A DNA stretch of 27,912 nucleotides from a virus (taxonomy: Duplodnaviria; Caudoviricetes): the IMG/VR virus record IMGVR_UViG_3300022844_000020, positions 1 to 27,912 of that record; one strand, given 5' to 3'. Shown in pieces: positions 4,249 to 15,980 of the stretch. How positions within the stretch are numbered: position 1 is the first letter of the stretch; every line of letters starts with the position of its first letter. The position numbers and the translations under genes were made by a program. The notes under the pieces are model-generated. The model ran no database searches. It worked only from the letters and a program-made list of their open reading frames with translations, and was not told the DNA's origin.

Positions 4249-4490
4249 GTTATGTGCAAGAATGCTTAGTTATGGATGTTTCCATGCGTGTTCCCAATCT
4301 TTATTATCATAAATTTTCCCTGTTCCATTACAAACAAGGCAAGTTTCTCCGTTAATTTTACCTTCTCCTTCACACTCATCACAATCAATGATTTCATCAT
4401 ATTCAAATCCTTCTACTCTTTTTTTTGCCATTTCAACCCTTTGTTTTAGTTTATATTCAAATTTCGCCTTTCAACACATAACACTCGTTA
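4249..4490 (-). mobile_element. Integron-like single-gene cassette
   Basis: AT-rich segment bounded by GTTATGTG (4249-4256) and its exact complement CACATAAC (4475-4482); TAAC-actc-GTTA at 4479-4490. Confidence 0.6.
4270..4431 (-). CDS. 53-aa DnaJ-type zinc-finger protein
   Basis: Not in the ORF track. MAKKRVEGFEYDEIIDCDECEGEGKINGETCLVCNGTGKIYDNKDWEHAWKHP; two CxxCxGxG motifs. Confidence 0.8.
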   Translation of the reverse strand: MAKKRVEGFEYDEIIDCDECEGEGKINGETCLVCNGTGKIYDNKDWEHAWKHP

Positions 4491-4493
4491 AAA

Positions 4494-5015
4494 TCAACTC
4501 TGCTGAATCTTAGCTTTGTACGTTAGCCGGTAAAAGAGGTCTAAGAACTGGCGCTTGGTTTTGCGCCAATGCTGGTATCTGATGTCGGCAGAAACTATCG
4601 GCTCCTGTCCCTTCAATACCATGCGTTCGCGAATGAGTGCAGCAGCATCTACTTCCTTCACTCGTGGATCTAAGATTTCCGGCACGCCGAACTTCTTTGC
4701 GATTTCGCTCCACAAGCGACCTTCAATCAATTGATAGTTCAGGCACTGCTTCTTAATTGGTGATGCCAAATCTTGCATATATGCTTCCGTAGCATCGTGC
4801 AGTAAGGCTTGCAAACCCAACTCTTTGCCGTACACATTGCGGTAGCACCATATAGAATGTTGCCCAACGGTGTATGGGAATCGGGTGTGCCCGGTCCAAC
4901 GTGGAATCATGCTTAAGGCGTGGGCAATGTCTTCGATATGAATACACTCAGGATTTGGATACATGATGTCCAACACATTACGGCTCGGATAGGTATCTAC
5001 TTTGGCGCTTGGCAT
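4494..5015 (-). CDS. HD-domain phosphohydrolase (YfbR/5'-deoxynucleotidase-like)
   Basis: IEDIAHALS..PRW.GH...YTVGQHS and ALLHDATEAY.D motifs; ATG 5015 directly follows the upstream stop. Confidence 0.85.
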   Translation of the reverse strand: MPSAKVDTYPSRNVLDIMYPNPECIHIEDIAHALSMIPRWTGHTRFPYTVGQHSIWCYRNVYGKELGLQALLHDATEAYMQDLASPIKKQCLNYQLIEGRLWSEIAKKFGVPEILDPRVKEVDAAALIRERMVLKGQEPIVSADIRYQHWRKTKRQFLDLFYRLTYKAKIQQS

Positions 5016-5016
5016 G

Positions 5017-5301
5017 TTAGTTCTCCAATTGTGGTGAAACATCTACAGTGCTTCTGTTTGTGTGCTCAGAAACATGGAATACCAAGCTGTTGAGTGCTTT
5101 ATTGGCTTTCTCCGCTAAGTTTACCTTATTGCCAAAGTTGTGAATTACATACGCCTTACCATCACTGTACTTGGCAATCACTATGTTTTGATGCGTGCTT
5201 TTATCTAGCGATTTGTTGGTTAGTACCAGTTTTTGCGTGGTAAAGAAAAGCACTTGCTCCAGGTCTAATTCTGCAATCGGTTCAATGGATTTGATAATCA
5301 T
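5017..5301 (-). CDS. Hypothetical protein
   Basis: ATGA-coupled ORF in the early operon. Confidence 0.65.
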   Translation of the reverse strand: MIIKSIEPIAELDLEQVLFFTTQKLVLTNKSLDKSTHQNIVIAKYSDGKAYVIHNFGNKVNLAEKANKALNSLVFHVSEHTNRSTVDVSPQLEN

Positions 5302-5797: not shown

Positions 5798-5818
5798 TGA
5801 ATTCTAAATTTTGAATTA
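5798..5818. repeat. Heptamer repeat (RAATTNN type), 3 units
   Basis: tgaattc taaattt tgaatta. Confidence 0.55.
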
Positions 5819-6928
5819 ATTGAGGATTTCACCTGTTGCTTCGTCTACGGTTTCGCCGTGCATGTCTTTGACGGGGCGGGTTTCGGTGGCGCCTGCAAAG
5901 GCTTCGTAATTGTTGTTGTACAAGCTTTGGCGGCCTCCATCAATAGTGCGATGTAGATTCACAATGTGGTGGCGTAGATCTTCGGGGCAATCGTCCATCA
6001 TCTTAATCTTGGTGATGAACTTGTTTGCCACATGTTGCGCCTCGAAAGCGTAGCCAAGCATATTCTCTAAACCTTCTACGGTTGCCGCCTTATTGCCGTG
6101 CATCATATCCATGCGTTCAGCGTACTCGGCTTTTTCTTGTAAATCACTTACTAGCTTTTTCTGCTGCTTAAGTTCAGCTTCTAGTTCACTCTTAGCATCC
6201 AGCAGCTTGGCATTGCGATCTTTGTAGCCGTCAATTTCACCCTTTAACAACTTACTGATCTCGTTTCGAGTTCGCATCTGAATATCTTCCAGGGCTACTT
6301 CACGTCCATCGCCGAATTTCACCACGCCTGTATTAAGCACCTCAGCGAAATCGGCGTCTTCGATTCGGGCTACTTCGTACCACTTAGATAAGCCAATACT
6401 GTTTAAGGCGGTTAAATTTGCTTGTTGTTCTTCATTTAAGTGGGACGCTGGTGTCTCACCATGTAACACCGGTGTTACATTGCTATGTAAACCCAGGTTT
6501 ACATTCGGAATTAAATCCTCAAACCTATCAGCCACTTTTAACTTTTTGTGAGCTGCTTGCCTAGAAATACCTAGCTCCACTTGATAGAACTCTTCACGAG
6601 TACTGTAGCCTAGATCTAGATGATGCTCACCATCTAAGAACTTCTTAAGGAGAATAGCTTGGGCAAGGTCTGCCATTTTCATGAGGCTGTACAGCGAATG
6701 CGCACTGGCTTGCTGTTGTGGTGTACGTTGCACTATTTCGCCACGTTCGGCGTCGTACACTTCGCGTACTTGGAATGAGGGTGCGGCCGTGGTCTGGTTG
6801 CCCGGAACCGCCACTGCGCCGCCATTTTGTGTGCTTTCGCAAGAATCATCCGTAGATGATGTTGTGACCTCATTTTCTTGATCGGAATTTTGAATTCTGA
6901 ATTCTGAATTTTGAATTTCTTCAGCCAT
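5816..6928 (-). CDS. DUF3102-like DNA-binding / coiled-coil protein
   Basis: Start at ATG 6928 (TAATG overlap). AILLKKF...HLDLGYSTREEFYQVELGISRQAAHKKLKVA resembles the DUF3102 HTH; C-terminal coiled coil. Confidence 0.6.
   Translation of the reverse strand: MAEEIQNSEFRIQNSDQENEVTTSSTDDSCESTQNGGAVAVPGNQTTAAPSFQVREVYDAERGEIVQRTPQQQASAHSLYSLMKMADLAQAILLKKFLDGEHHLDLGYSTREEFYQVELGISRQAAHKKLKVADRFEDLIPNVNLGLHSNVTPVLHGETPASHLNEEQQANLTALNSIGLSKWYEVARIEDADFAEVLNTGVVKFGDGREVALEDIQMRTRNEISKLLKGEIDGYKDRNAKLLDAKSELEAELKQQKKLVSDLQEKAEYAERMDMMHGNKAATVEGLENMLGYAFEAQHVANKFITKIKMMDDCPEDLRHHIVNLHRTIDGGRQSLYNNNYEAFAGATETRPVKDMHGETVDEATGEILN
6440..6504. repeat. Three tandem 20-bp palindromes inside coding sequence
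   Basis: GTGGGACGCTGGTGTCTCAC (6440-6459, pairs with G-T wobbles), ATGTAACACCGGTGTTACAT (6461-6480, perfect), ATGTAAACCCAGGTTTACAT (6485-6504, 9-bp arms). Confidence 0.9.
6885..6919. repeat. Heptamer repeat (GAATTYY)x5 within coding sequence
   Basis: gaatttt gaattct gaattct gaatttt gaatttc; translates as EIQNSEFRIQNS on the minus strand. Confidence 0.9.
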
Positions 6929-7221
6929 TACACTGCTTCCTTGTTTGATTTTTCGTTTAGTATTTTTCGGATGTACTCGTGCGATAAGCAGAAGTAGAAG
7001 GCGATTTTTCGCAAGCTCCACTCAAACGAAACTTGGTGAAATCGCCATGCGGTCCATTCCATATCTGTGCCCATAAAGGGGTTTTCGGTGTAGCCAACAG
7101 GCTCAATTTCTAAGGCTCTGCGAACGGTGCGTTCGCTGCATTCTAGGCGCTTGGCAATAAGTGCATTACCCATGCCTACCGATTTCGCCATTACTATGCG
7201 GTTGTGGAGATTAGTCGGCAT
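6928..7221 (-). CDS. Double-HTH DNA-binding protein
   Basis: NALIAKRLECSERTVRRAL and WSLRKIAFYFCLSHEYIRKIL. Confidence 0.7.
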   Translation of the reverse strand: MPTNLHNRIVMAKSVGMGNALIAKRLECSERTVRRALEIEPVGYTENPFMGTDMEWTAWRFHQVSFEWSLRKIAFYFCLSHEYIRKILNEKSNKEAV

Positions 7222-11563: not shown

Positions 11564-11644
11564 AATAGGCACTCGAATACGTTGGACTTGTTAGAAATCG
11601 AAATGAACGGGAAATGAACGAAGTGCCACGGCCTAGTCGTCGTG

Positions 11645-11679
11645 GAATTATGAATTATGAATTTTAAATTTTGAATTTC
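11645..11679. repeat. Heptamer repeat (RAATTWY)x5
   Basis: gaattat gaattat gaatttt aaatttt gaatttc; overlaps the TTG start of the MuF gene. Confidence 0.85.
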
Positions 11680-13011
11680 CCAAAAAACAAATACTATCTC
11701 GTCACCAAAGGGCTTATTGAAGCGCGGAAGATATATGCGATAATCCGAAAGGATGAATATGATAAGATTGCGGCGGAGCTACAGGATCTCTTGGTTCGCA
11801 GTTGGAATGAGGCGACAACCGAAGCGATTCGCGATGTAATTCGGGCAACCAACAATAGATTGGCGTTCACCAACGAGATGCTGGACGAGATGATTGCCGC
11901 ACTTAAGCCCAAGCTCGGCGCTGCCTTTGCTGGGAATGTGGCAAATACCATGCTCGAGATTCAAGCGAGTACGTACTCCCTAGGAATGAAAGACATTCTA
12001 GGAATCTCGCCGTCGTTGAACTTGGTAGACAATAAGGCACTGGAAGCTCTTGCACGTTACGCCAACTATCCCGTAATGCATCACTTCGATGCTCAGCTCG
12101 AAGGCAAGATTCGCGAATTTGGCTCCAAAATTATAAGCGAAGGCTTAAACCGTGAGGAAGCCGGAAAGCTCTTTGAGGATGAATTTGCAAAAAAATACGA
12201 CCTTCAATCCTTCCGATACTGGCAAGGCTATGCGAATCATGTTGTCACTGATACCAGGGAATCGGGTAGAATTAGTGCCTACGAGCAAGCCGAAGTGGAG
12301 TATGCAGAAGTGCGAGCCATTCTAGATCACCGAACTACGGAGATCTGCCGACACATGCACGGACGCAGAATTTTGGTGTCTGAACTTAGAAGAGTTGAAG
12401 ATATCAAGTTGGCCAATCCAGATCCCTCAAAAATAAAAGACATTATGCCATGGGCGAGCGCCAAATCGGTAAGTGAGAGCAAAACTACCAAACTCCCTGA
12501 TGGAGCCCTAAAACCACCGTACCATTTCAACTGCAGAACACGAACGGTAATGGCGCGAGAAGTAAGCGAACGCAATCAAGTTTCTGGCACTTCAATGGGC
12601 AAAGGTGTTGGAGCCGATGATAAGAAAAAGCTGAATAGTCTTACCGATGAGGAATACAGCAATTGGATGCAGACCATTCGTGGCAAGCGCAAGTTCGGCT
12701 TTGCGCCCGATCAGATTGAAGAGCAGCTGAAAGAATATGCCAGCAGCTTGGGCTTGAAAACCGCCGACAAAGACGCCTACCTCAAAGCCGGGCAAGGTAT
12801 CGTTCGAAATGCTACGGGCGTAATTGCCAAGGTGAACAATACTGCAGACGGCAAACGACAGTTCAACTTTCATTTCTTTTCGGCTGCCGGCGTTGCCGTA
12901 GTGGGTGATGATCTGCTCTTCCACTCCATTAAAGGATTAGAAGATTCCGCCAAGAGCTTCGCCGGGAGTCTCAGTAATGGCTTGAAGCTCGGTGGTAGCT
13001 GGGATGAGTAG
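11671..13011 (+). CDS. Minor head protein (MuF / SPP1 gp7 family) with C-terminal extension
   Basis: AILDHRTTEICRHMHGR and PPYHFNCRT motifs; about 150 extra C-terminal residues; start codon uncertain (TTG). Confidence 0.85.
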   Translation: MNFPKNKYYLVTKGLIEARKIYAIIRKDEYDKIAAELQDLLVRSWNEATTEAIRDVIRATNNRLAFTNEMLDEMIAALKPKLGAAFAGNVANTMLEIQASTYSLGMKDILGISPSLNLVDNKALEALARYANYPVMHHFDAQLEGKIREFGSKIISEGLNREEAGKLFEDEFAKKYDLQSFRYWQGYANHVVTDTRESGRISAYEQAEVEYAEVRAILDHRTTEICRHMHGRRILVSELRRVEDIKLANPDPSKIKDIMPWASAKSVSESKTTKLPDGALKPPYHFNCRTRTVMAREVSERNQVSGTSMGKGVGADDKKKLNSLTDEEYSNWMQTIRGKRKFGFAPDQIEEQLKEYASSLGLKTADKDAYLKAGQGIVRNATGVIAKVNNTADGKRQFNFHFFSAAGVAVVGDDLLFHSIKGLEDSAKSFAGSLSNGLKLGGSWDE

Positions 13012-13145
13012 CATAACGTGCCGGGCTATGTTCAGTTGATTTTAGCGAGCGTTATGTACGGTTTGGCTATGCAGCGTTGAGGAACGAAACGATTTATAGG
13101 TTGTGTTATATACTGGCACGACTTTAACAACTAAAAATTAATAAA

Positions 13146-13445
13146 ATGGTACATTCTAAATTTATAATTGAAGGCGAAAACTTGATAATGGCTAAATGCA
13201 CTTTTCATAAACAACTAGCAACTGACAAAGAAAAAGTAAAAGGCGGTGGATGGTTTAGATTCGATGATAACAAGAAAGCCTTTATACTTGGTGGATCTTC
13301 TCATGACTTTGGTTATGCTGAGATGAACGATATTAAAAAGTGCATTGAAGATGGTAATGTTTACGGAAATAGCAGAATGAGTAGGAAGATGGACAATTAT
13401 AAATTTTTCTATGACACACCATCTGAATTGATAGCACTAAACTAA
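13146..13445 (+). CDS. Hypothetical cassette protein
   Basis: 99-aa AT-rich ORF beginning about 40 nt after GTTATATAC. Confidence 0.75.
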   Translation: MVHSKFIIEGENLIMAKCTFHKQLATDKEKVKGGGWFRFDDNKKAFILGGSSHDFGYAEMNDIKKCIEDGNVYGNSRMSRKMDNYKFFYDTPSELIALN

Positions 13446-13456
13446 GTTCTTGTATA

Positions 13457-13603
13457 TACTCGGATGATGCTATTAAAATTTTAGAAGATGCAGGATTAAA
13501 ATTAAATACTGATTTTGTGACAGGAAATGATTCTCCAAGAGGTGGGAAAACAGGGAACTTTGTTGAATTAACCTCTAAAGGAAAAACAAAAGCAATCAAA
13601 TAA
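13457..13603 (+). pseudogene. 5'-truncated gene remnant
   Basis: Frame YSDDAIKILEDAGLKLNTDFVTGNDSPRGGKTGNFVELTSKGKTKAIK* with no ATG; its stop is TAATG-coupled to the HTH gene. Confidence 0.55.
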
Positions 13604-13866
13604 TGGATAATAAACAATCATCAGAAATCCGTCAGGATTTAATTCTGACCTATTTAAAAAACAGAATGAAAGAAAAAAAAGTTACTCAAAATAAACTTGC
13701 TGAAATACTGCAAGTAAGTGTAATTACTTTAATAAGATACTTTAAAAAAGAAACACAAATGCCTTTAGGTGTGTATTTAGAAATATGTGTTGCTTTGGAA
13801 TTAAGACCTTATTTAATACCAACTGAAAGCGATAATACTGAAATGCAACGAATGTTTTTAAATTAG
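13603..13866 (+). CDS. XRE-family HTH protein
   Basis: LKNRMKEKKVTQNKLAEILQVSVITLIRYF...YLEICVALEL. Confidence 0.85.
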   Translation: MDNKQSSEIRQDLILTYLKNRMKEKKVTQNKLAEILQVSVITLIRYFKKETQMPLGVYLEICVALELRPYLIPTESDNTEMQRMFLN

Positions 13867-13907
13867 TTTTTTTAGCGCATGAGTGGTCGCCTTTTTTTTA
13901 TTTTATT

Positions 13908-13965
13908 GTAGATAACGCTGAGTGTAAACGGTCGTTTTAATGCCGTTTTACACATTGTTAGGCAC
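13908..13965 (+). repeat. attC-like site
   Basis: GTAGATAAC...GTGTAAA-CGG / CCGTTTTACAC...GTTAGGCAC: imperfect hairpin with a one-base bulge and a GTTRRRY core. Confidence 0.65.
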
Positions 13966-13982
13966 TTTTAAAAAAATGAATT

Positions 13983-14630
13983 ATGCACAGAAGTAACATA
14001 GAAATACATAACCTTGATTGTTTGCCGTTTATGAAGCAATGCGAGGACAAGCAATTTGATTTAGCAATAGTAGACCCACCCTACGGTATTGAACGGGCTG
14101 GACAAACTGAAACATTTACTAAAAACCCAAAACACAAAAGGAAGCATCACGAAAATAAAGGGTGGGATAATGCAATACCAACTGATGAATATTTTAGAGA
14201 ACTTGAAAGAATATCTAAAAATCAAATTGTGTGGGGTGCGAATTATTTTGTTGCCCATTTAAACAAAGGAACAATGGGCTGGATAGTTTGGGATAAAGGA
14301 CAACACGGGTTAAGTATGAGTGATTGTGAACTTGCTTACAGTAGCTTTAACAAAGCAACAAGGGTTTTTACGTTTAACAGAGGATTGATAGCACAAAAAG
14401 GCGGAAGCATACACCCAACCCAAAAACCTGTTGAGCTGTATAGATACCTGTTAAATGAATATGCAGAAAAGGGCAACAAAATATTTGATTCGCATTTAGG
14501 AAGTGGAAGCATTGCGATTGCTTGTGATGACTTGGGGTTTGATTTAACCGCTTGTGAAATTGATAAACAGTATTTTGATAAGGCAAACAAAAGGCTCGAA
14601 CCTTATAGAAAGCAACGAACCCTTTTTTAA
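13983..14630 (+). CDS. DNA N6-adenine/N4-cytosine methyltransferase, beta class
   Basis: Motif IV IVDPPY precedes HPTQKP and motif I FDSHLGSGS. Confidence 0.92.
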   Translation: MHRSNIEIHNLDCLPFMKQCEDKQFDLAIVDPPYGIERAGQTETFTKNPKHKRKHHENKGWDNAIPTDEYFRELERISKNQIVWGANYFVAHLNKGTMGWIVWDKGQHGLSMSDCELAYSSFNKATRVFTFNRGLIAQKGGSIHPTQKPVELYRYLLNEYAEKGNKIFDSHLGSGSIAIACDDLGFDLTACEIDKQYFDKANKRLEPYRKQRTLF

Positions 14631-14710
14631 TTGTGCCTAACACCGGTGTTATGCCAGGCGGAATTTATAGCTATTCTTTTTTAGCTCAGATTTTTGTAAA
14701 ATTGACGAAG

Positions 14711-14745
14711 AAATTATGAATTCTAAATTTTTAATTTTGAATTAG
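14711..14745. repeat. Heptamer repeat (NAATTNN)x5
   Basis: aaattat gaattct aaatttt taatttt gaattag; inverted partial copy at 14757-14767. Confidence 0.75.
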
Positions 14746-14849: not shown

Positions 14850-15980
14850 ATGCCCCAGGCCAAACCAAAACGCCGTCTCAAAAATCTAACCGTTGAGTTC
14901 ATCTCCCTGGTAGATGCCGGTGCGAATAAGCGCGAAGTCATTTACAAAAATGCTGATGCTAATTCACTCGAAAATAACGTTGCTAAGACCATCGAAATTC
15001 GCAAAGTAGATGATGAGCAAGGTCTTGTGTATGGTATTGTATATGCTCCCGATGAATCTGATGCTCACGATGACACGATGCTTGCCGCCGATATTAAGAA
15101 AGCCGCGCATGAATTTCTTGCTGCCGGCAAAACCAATCGCGTAGATAAGCAGCACGATCAAAATCCCGATAAAGGCTATGTTGTAGAAAGCTACATTATT
15201 GGCAAAGCGGACGCCAATTTCCCCTCTGATCCAATTGGCTCCTGGGCGGTAGTGATTAAAGTAACCGACGAAGCCACCAAAAAAGAACTTAAAGATGGCG
15301 AGATCAAAGGTATAAGTATGGAAGGTTTTGCTGAAGTCGAAAATCTAGAAGACGAAACCCCTGTAGAAAAAGCGGAATTCATTATTTCTGAAGTGAAGAA
15401 ATACATCGACGAGAAATTCCCGTCCATCAAAAAACTATTTAAAAAAGGCGAAGAAATGAATACTACCAAACAGTCAGTGACCGATTTTGCAGAAATATTA
15501 AAAAGTCTAGCCGGCAAAACAGAAGAGGAGTTTATTGCCATTCAGAAGAGCTTCGCCGATTCCCTGGTAGACAATCAACTTCGCCAAGCGGTGTTCGCGC
15601 TAGAATCTTCCAGCTATGAGATTATGAGATCCGATTCTATATCAGACAAAAAGGCGGCATTAGTTACCAACGCTGGTGAATTCGCAGACTATGTATCCGG
15701 GCTAACCATTTCAAAATCAAAAACCCCAAAAAATGAGGACACATCCATGTCTGAAGTAACAAAAGAAGCAACCGATGTGGAGAAATCCGAAGGTGGTGAT
15801 GAAAAGAGCCCGGAACTCCAGGCTATCGAAAAATTAACGTCAACCGTAACGGAGCTTGGCAATCGCATTGAGAAGGTCGAGAAGACTGCCGGTATCAGTA
15901 AGGCTAATTCCGGACAAGATGATGGCGAGCATGTAGAGAAGAGCTACAGCGCAGACGCTCCTCTTAATATTTTCGGATAA
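14850..15980 (+). CDS. XkdF-like prohead serine protease with scaffold-like C-terminus
   Basis: ISLVDAGAN, LVYGIVYAPD..DAH.D, VDKQHD, VVESYI, GSW, GEIKGISMEG. Confidence 0.85.
   Translation: MPQAKPKRRLKNLTVEFISLVDAGANKREVIYKNADANSLENNVAKTIEIRKVDDEQGLVYGIVYAPDESDAHDDTMLAADIKKAAHEFLAAGKTNRVDKQHDQNPDKGYVVESYIIGKADANFPSDPIGSWAVVIKVTDEATKKELKDGEIKGISMEGFAEVENLEDETPVEKAEFIISEVKKYIDEKFPSIKKLFKKGEEMNTTKQSVTDFAEILKSLAGKTEEEFIAIQKSFADSLVDNQLRQAVFALESSSYEIMRSDSISDKKAALVTNAGEFADYVSGLTISKSKTPKNEDTSMSEVTKEATDVEKSEGGDEKSPELQAIEKLTSTVTELGNRIEKVEKTAGISKANSGQDDGEHVEKSYSADAPLNIFG

Follow-up and report, generated by a model that had tools for sequence, protein, structure and literature searches.

Exchange of gene cassettes with reversed attC-like hairpins in the head operon of a phage

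The viral record IMGVR_UViG_3300022844_000020 is a single linear contig of 27,912 bases, the whole of which was analysed here and is called the window. Between a MuF-like head gene and an XkdF-type prohead protease it carries a block of accessory genes set off by attC-like hairpins, which an earlier note had read from the sequence as an array of integron cassettes. We have found that the gene content of this block differs among near-identical phages, with breakpoints in the TAAC core motif, that one cassette is present at two loci, that the hairpins have a reversed polarity with respect to their genes and that the array has a palindromic target. Site-specific cassette traffic is a very probable explanation of these data. 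Furthermore, the block is probably a mobile gene-cassette array written by a short relative of the integron integrases that lacks I2, acting in trans from the host or from a co-infecting phage. The new parts of this locus are the swaps between near-isogenic phages, a defined target and a candidate newborn cassette.

Cassette content of near-identical phages

The sister genome L001 matches the window at 100% as far as position 13917 and at 99.8% from 14638, and between these positions it holds 840 other bases, which comprise a different hairpin with a different N6/N4 methyltransferase, followed by a third hairpin and a body of 36 bases that has no open reading frame (ORF). A second sister, L019, is 96.8% identical from 14638 and has the same tiny unit as L001, preceded by 127 bases identical to window 4375-4249, the 3' 127 bp of cassette E (100%). 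Cassette E is therefore found at two loci, in an HD-domain gene in the window and in the head array in L019. In L025 the array is that of the window. The right breakpoint lies at 14638-14651 in L001, L019 and three read sets, and contigs branch at 13912-13917 in four runs and at 14638-14641 in three. In run X11 one 25-base loose end at 13912-13917 reads as the start of the hairpin of E, and in run X10 cassette E is followed by the hairpin of the tiny unit. Such loose ends may stem from other phages that share cassettes, and the claim therefore rests on the three assembled states.

These genomes bear out the mobility proposed in the earlier note, as homology ends in the TAAC cores; neither of the outcomes that it had named as fatal, identical content in relatives or breaks away from the cores, occurred. 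The alignment of related phages gave the different cassettes that it had expected behind MuF; the empty head site, which it had named as the alternative, was absent from the contigs of 6 runs, where circles and their joints were not seen either. Contigs drop rare forms, so that the missing joints say nothing on absence. The breakpoints are resolved to the 4-5 bases shared by the two partners, within which the bond exchanged is presumably G|TT. A pattern scan of the metagenome was discarded, 44 of its 46 loci being chance matches.

The array and cassette E have the following parts.

13011..13016, plus strand: left half of the target site, on the phage side of the presumed TAA|C crossover, complementary to 14649-14654
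13014..13054, minus strand: hairpin A1, decayed and attC-like, its top strand being the minus strand (sequence, weak fold, L box with 3 mismatches)
13056..13108, minus strand: hairpin A2, fused to A1, without an intact TAAC (sequence)
13105..13916, plus strand: body of unit 1, a chimera of three parts
13913..13960, minus strand: hairpin B, an intact attC-like site that travels with the methyltransferase (pattern matches, covariation, anatomy)
13916..14640, plus strand: methyltransferase cassette of 725 bp, hairpin B plus gene (PF01555, phrog_67), replaced in L001
14638..14651, no strand: target (entry) site, a perfect 14-bp palindrome with two 4-bp cores around a 6-bp centre (right breakpoints, copy number)
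4250..4522, minus strand: cassette E, 273 bp, hairpin 4479-4525 plus a 53-aa CxxCxGxG ORF at 4270-4431 (empty site in relatives)

The block is AT-rich, as had been noted before (33.9% GC vs 48.1% in the MuF gene and 43.6% in the protease gene), and it begins ~5 bases past the MuF stop codon rather than exactly at it. The six terminal motifs described previously are in place: the outer 7-mers are complementary, and so are 9/9 bases at the ends of the methyltransferase unit and 8/9 at those of the first unit. Past the shared 4-bp core, complementarity at 5/5 further pairs has p ~0.0015 and at 4/5 ~0.02, given the composition of the insert. However, the outer 7-mers appear to be the halves of the target and not the ends of the insert. 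As for the separators of ~50-60 bp, only hairpin B (48 bases, intact) fits this description, since the first separator (13014-13108) consists of two fused, decayed hairpins and the last one is the 14-bp palindrome. The fused A1 and A2 taken whole fold with z scores of -0.25 and 0.0, and hairpin B alone folds modestly (z -1.25 and -1.51), and it is comparison with other sites, and not its own fold, that suggests that hairpin B is real. Its pattern has 43 matches in 42 viral loci. Hairpin A1 resembles the hairpin of cassette E and appears to have lost its own gene; A2 has a 14-nt loop in common with an intact hairpin (L157:3572-3624) and is likely immobile.

Unit 1 contains a 99-aa ORF without assigned function (13146-13445), the 3' remnant of another gene (13447-13602) and a Cro/C1-type helix-turn-helix gene (13603-13866; PF13443, E 2e-5). 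The stretch 13461-13916 aligns at 85-93% to three viral loci (L134-L136) where the remnant is a whole 97-aa gene, and contigs branch at 13103 and at 13446. Unit 1 is seen as a fusion of two cassettes whose 3' core is unlike that of L136 and nearer the complement of the new start, as if its ends had been corrected after the fusion. In the methyltransferase cassette, the N6/N4 DNA methyltransferase ORF spans 13983-14630; its homologs stop at this very TAAC, with covarying body ends. By geometry, A1, A2 and B make the array a group of attC sites with no integron-integrase (CALIN, at least two attC-like sites without integrase), and no Rfam family was matched at gathering level.

Cassette E (33.3% GC) is a single insertion at the 3' end of the HD-domain gene 4494-5042. 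Its relatives L205 and L206 have an empty site at the same two codons, and past E the window frame encodes a short tail with a stop that overlaps the following start, which is also the arrangement in these two relatives. In being single and placed within a coding site for which relatives show the empty form, it is like a lone attC site with no integron-integrase (SALIN) or an attG insertion, for which the part of the publication at hand reports excision outside the insertion point (10.1101/2022.09.11.507474); the cases described in that part differ in that they concern IntI1-3, bacterial chromosomes and canonical cassettes.

If the hairpins were only shared repeats, the cassettes could be exchanged by homologous or phage-annealing recombination with no site-specific enzyme. 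Hairpins of the B family are indeed plentiful in these samples (contig depths sum to as much as 544 vs 37), hybrids with one arm exchanged exist (L053) and hairpins turn over among distant homologs. However, the breaks lie at the outer TAAC with only 4-5 bases shared, the target palindrome is no hairpin and the body ends covary as complements. Moreover, relatives have no hairpin at the coding site that E entered, which largely refutes this explanation, and we consider it very unlikely.

Polarity and anatomy of the hairpins

Every break lies within the TAAC that forms the left end of a hairpin, and the hairpin therefore moves with the gene behind it, with G|TT on the minus strand. The canonical polarity assumed by the earlier note has thus to be abandoned together with its cassette limits: the mobile unit begins at the upstream TAAC, not at a GTT of the plus strand, and the hairpin stands upstream of its gene. 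A clear gene strand was lacking for 7 of the 112 distinct hairpins in related viral contigs; of the 105 that could be oriented, 86 read TAAC-G...T-GTT on the gene strand (reversed), so that the attC does not lie downstream of its gene, 1 had the opposite (canonical) orientation and 18 had neither. Without the family used for searching, 63/82 were reversed. Canonical polarity was found in 25/26 host integron sites. L boxes were found in 89/106 hairpins when read antisense vs 44/106 when read sense.

The joint movement of hairpin and gene was also seen in pairs of loci. By a strict test the hairpin was kept at ≥0.78 in 11/14 pairs with a common downstream flank (the three low pairs all involve L064), and 3/3 pairs with a common upstream flank diverge within 2 bases after TAAC. 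Thirteen of the 15 methyltransferase loci inspected end at TAAC just behind the gene and go on with other sequence, and their body ends change together as complements. As a signature of circles, the body ends match 3/3 beyond the core in 39/90 units vs 4.8 for shuffled partners.

Several points weigh against this picture. The loci were chosen by their likeness to the window, so that the counts are not a random sample and the pairs are not independent. An automatic test of co-travel split 2 vs 2, and distant homologs often exchange the hairpin, which only 12/87 pairs had kept (background 5.8%); hairpins are thus exchanged over time among distant homologs. The detector used for hairpins is rough (49 real vs 10 shuffled matches) and misses A1, A2 and E, and the matches of our R2 model to these three are by construction.

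The reversed reading on the gene strand means that the sense strand of the gene is the bottom strand, with G|TT on the minus strand. The forward oligos in Table S3 of Qi et al. are presumably bottom strands, judging from the layout of the aadA7 control, and on this assumption they carry the signature of the phage gene strand. Literature searches at the level of titles and abstracts, with few subscription papers, returned no report of a general reversed polarity in phages, and the reversed design is surprising against published work. A promoter in the hairpin was considered as a cause of the reversal and rejected: of 145 hairpins, 8 have the Bacteroidota promoter motif TAnnTTTG on the gene strand and 10 have it on the opposite one, and a sigma-70 scan gave 9 matches vs 7.0 expected. 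Many hairpins of 120-130 bases (L057, L062-L064, L143, L144) carry an ATG in their loop, and the start of the gene may thus lie within the site.

In their anatomy the sites share much with attC. The cores AAC...GTT bound an imperfect inverted repeat and are invariant in 24/24 aligned sites, and 7/10 stem pairs change on both sides, a score reached in 0/500 shuffles, in an alignment where the middle of the 15 viral rows was fixed by a search pattern taken from the window row. A 5-nt left spacer is followed by an L box on one strand, and the right spacer has 7-8 nt in 64/89 phage sites; in hairpin B the spacers are of 5 and 7 nt. What the phage sites lack is the extrahelical G in the L'' arm of the bottom strand. 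In the host integron the sites have a bulge in 25/25 cases, 22 of them C on top and therefore G on the bottom strand, and 58/89 phage sites have none, only 2 of the 31 extra bases being C on top. Hairpin B itself speaks against a bulge-less design, as it has one extra A on the top strand (T on the bottom strand).

CALINs with methyltransferases have already been described in phages (Qi et al. 2023; PMC9892861). One of them, in the Polaribacter phage P12002L, resembles the window array in having attC-like sites without integrase and N6/N4 methyltransferases as cargo, and its site P12002L_attC1 belongs to the family of hairpin B (87.5% identity over 72 nt of its region) and lies between two methyltransferases, where its bottom strand likewise coincides with the gene strand. 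The portion of that paper at hand notes 'divergent' sites and does not describe a general reversed polarity, swaps, a target or the enzyme. In P12002L our detector marked three more gene-strand hairpins (L213:644-769, 1288-1346, 2614-2660) than the two sites tested in 2023, and the last cassette abuts a site of opposite orientation.

Proposed movement and candidate enzymes

In the mechanism that we propose, a cassette would leave as a circle in which the complementary body ends close the hairpin, the sense strand of the gene would be the folded, recombining (bottom) strand and the cut would fall at G|TT on the minus strand. The palindrome 14638-14651, or the TAAC of a terminal hairpin before it, would be the point of entry for new cassettes, so that the array would age from the newest cassettes beside the protease to the oldest and decayed ones beside MuF. 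The cassette genes would be read together with the late head operon, and the methyltransferases may shield packaged DNA from host restriction. The enzyme would come in trans from the likely Balneolaceae host or from a co-infecting phage. This host is likely because the sole genome-borne relative (MuF 68% identical) sits in a Balneola metagenome-assembled genome, G001.

No integrase is in view, as already stated in the earlier note: the window record, which is incomplete (29% complete by rating), has no PF00589 match, no IntI with I2 beside the array and no short PF13495+PF00589 integrase at the array end. Furthermore, PF00589 is missing from 12 of the 13 near-complete viral records that have such hairpins. 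Three of all 31 hairpin-bearing records have one, and these three viral integrases score below the IntI cut-off. The short integrases considered here (256-270 aa, PF13495+PF00589; in viruses, the enzyme of G081 and five relatives) have the N-terminal family of IntI and lack ~37 residues in two gaps. Reversed arrays lie directly upstream of the short integrase in 2/5 further viral loci (L220, L223), laid out like an integron with its genes turned round. These I2-less phage platforms have reversed cassettes and bulge-poor hairpins with the enzyme at the array, and the window array differs from them as a recipient without enzyme and with two loci, in a phage whose host group is likely another one. 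In the likely host family, 7 of 9 Balneolaceae stretches chosen for short PF13495 matches held a short enzyme (6 genomes), and bulge-less hairpins with 7-8-nt spacers are upstream of it in 2/7 of these loci (3 sites). The earlier note had suggested searching the host for IntI-like recombinases, and such enzymes do occur in its likely family, IntI being present in 30/61 Balneolaceae genomes.

It is this match of bulge-poor sites to an I2-less enzyme that decides our ranking, because I2 reads the bulged bases (PMC4792948, in the part at hand). The short enzyme seems somewhat the better candidate on what is a correlation across few loci, canonical IntI comes second as a possibility we hold less probable, and some other enzyme is improbable. 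The same literature searches returned no paper on I2-less cassette integrases. Several observations speak against the short enzyme. No such array was seen in the stretch read at 3/5 viral and 5/7 host loci of short integrases, the G081 enzyme lies 18 kb from the array there, and short enzymes were confirmed in only 6 genomes of the family, fewer than have IntI. Moreover, Balneola G001 itself has a full IntI, the host assignment hangs on this one 68% relative and an enzyme in cis may lie in the rest of the incomplete record.

The same cassettes may instead be moved by the canonical IntI of the host, with I2, the palindrome and the HD-gene site being secondary targets of attG type. The G001 enzyme scores 432 bits (cut-off 265) and is accompanied by 25 uniform attC sites (G001:C1:854274-868800; L190, L191), whose right spacer is also long (9 nt). 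The only four matches of the host attC model were all phage hairpins, antisense and weak (E 0.15-4.8), and G001 has one short phage-type hairpin, no short integrase being seen in this genome. As far as the published parts consulted go, genome sites that have a GWT core receive cassettes through IntI (10.1101/2022.09.11.507474) and five phage sites recombined with IntI1 (PMC9892861). However, the bulged G is missing from the phage sites, the G001 array contains no phage-type hairpin and P12002L_attC1, the nearest to hairpin B, was the only one of six sites not verified with IntI1 in that study, although IntI1 is a foreign enzyme there. We regard this explanation as rather unlikely. The pattern of hairpin B had 0 matches in 401 genomes of the phylum of G001, and R2 found single short hairpins, of canonical polarity, in 3/61 genomes of the family. 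The short phage-type hairpins of canonical polarity in three Balneolaceae chromosomes (L214:555-1548, L215:1506-1551, L216:1506-1566) lie beside AAA-ATPase, HipA and HNH genes.

A third possibility is that the phage encodes its own cassette recombinase outside the record, which is linear and incomplete; other phages do carry short integrases beside their arrays. However, the array lies between two head genes with no adjoining enzyme, the record of L001 has no recombinase and the related prophage region of G001 (1.17-1.19 Mb) has no TIGR02249 match at E 0.001, and this seems quite improbable.

The short I2-less enzyme acting in trans is kept as the preferred candidate, and it fits at least as well as IntI. 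The array works like an integron cassette array, with two 4-bp cores, a 5-nt left spacer, L boxes on one strand, complementary body ends and decay from newest to oldest as likenesses to the Balneola integron. It differs from it in having no IntI or evident attI beside it, the hairpin upstream of the gene, no bulged G and a right spacer of 7-8 nt vs 9. We do not count it as a member, because bulged G and polarity fail and no integrase or attI is in view; filing its units plainly as integron attC cassettes, as previously done, is not supported.

Target palindrome, tiny unit and neighbouring genes

The 14-bp core of the target has 2 exact copies in the window vs 0.02 expected. When the cassettes are removed on paper, 13011-13016 and 14641-14654 would join into a perfect 20-bp palindrome, the presumed empty form. 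The two cores of the perfect palindrome are 6 bp apart, whereas the attI of Balneolaceae, conserved and A/T-rich, has a degenerate left box one base closer. The target starts like a hairpin subfamily that closes arrays: 5/5 such sites with room behind them are the last, vs 33/91 of the common type. This subfamily starts with (T/C)AACAC and has near-equal spacers (L091, L098, L147, L163, L168; L001:9015-9059), and its members are candidate entry sites in phage arrays.

The second copy of the target core is in an early gene.

6440..6504, minus strand: three tandem palindromes in the early gene 5816-7021 (palindrome analysis, match to the tiny unit)

The middle palindrome, 6461-6480, contains the copy. 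The palindromes make the protein of this gene ~13 residues longer than four close homologs; they are coded in frame just after a likely helix-turn-helix, and the homologs seem to have one palindrome. They are possibly the protein's own binding sites. To call them operators is a guess, because the protein has no Pfam or PHROG family.

The tiny unit of L001 and L019 (73 bp) may record how a cassette is made. Its hairpin belongs to the array-ending subfamily, its body matches window 6468-6440 in 28/29 bases (L001:9055-9083) and at its end the body repeats its own start as an 11-base inverse copy. The unit could be a new cassette excised from the early gene. Alternatively, a pair of operators may have been duplicated into the head region and then have taken up a hairpin; the form of the window could also come from slippage between the two 7-base starts. 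As a tentative idea, and one more doubtful than not, an I2-less phage system was caught here making a cassette from a hairpin of the family and 29 bases of the phage's own early gene, and this cassette landed in another copy of that palindrome. The piece would have been cut between palindromes, which would supply the complementary ends for free. If this were true, phage operators would be both doors and moulds for cassettes, and the tiny unit would offer a first natural model for the genesis of cassettes and for the stage that preceded I2 and bulged bases.

The three assembled array states and the cassette at two loci put integron-like cassette traffic at work within one natural phage population, in sequencing runs labelled salt lake metagenome. 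The sharing of these cassettes with flavobacterial phages, together with a nearest phage relative in Balneola, points to a phage cassette pool across host groups that trades methyltransferases. How a hairpin system could work before I2 and bulged bases existed, a question called a chicken-and-egg paradox in a 2016 paper (PMC4792948), can now be tested with named parts. The same holds for how cassettes are made, for which that paper stated that there was 'no reliable model'.

The array has two neighbours in the head operon.

11671..13011, plus strand: MuF-like head gene on the left (PF04233, E 6e-6, under the family cut-off)
14850..15980, plus strand: XkdF-type prohead protease on the right (PF14550, E 3e-30)

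Terminase, portal, MuF, XkdF protease and capsid are on the plus strand, and the early genes, Mu-like (GemA, DUF3164), are on the minus strand. Behind MuF the 68% relatives have no hairpins. Their gap between MuF and protease holds other small ORFs, one in L003 (6085-6500) and two in L142 (9320-9900), each preceded by an A/T-rich short tandem repeat, and it is a hotspot filled by a different route. Finally, an A/T-rich repeat of 32-36 bases is present in three copies in the window (6884-6919, 11644-11679 and 14712-14743; 89-91% alike), one within the start of the early gene and two ahead of head genes.

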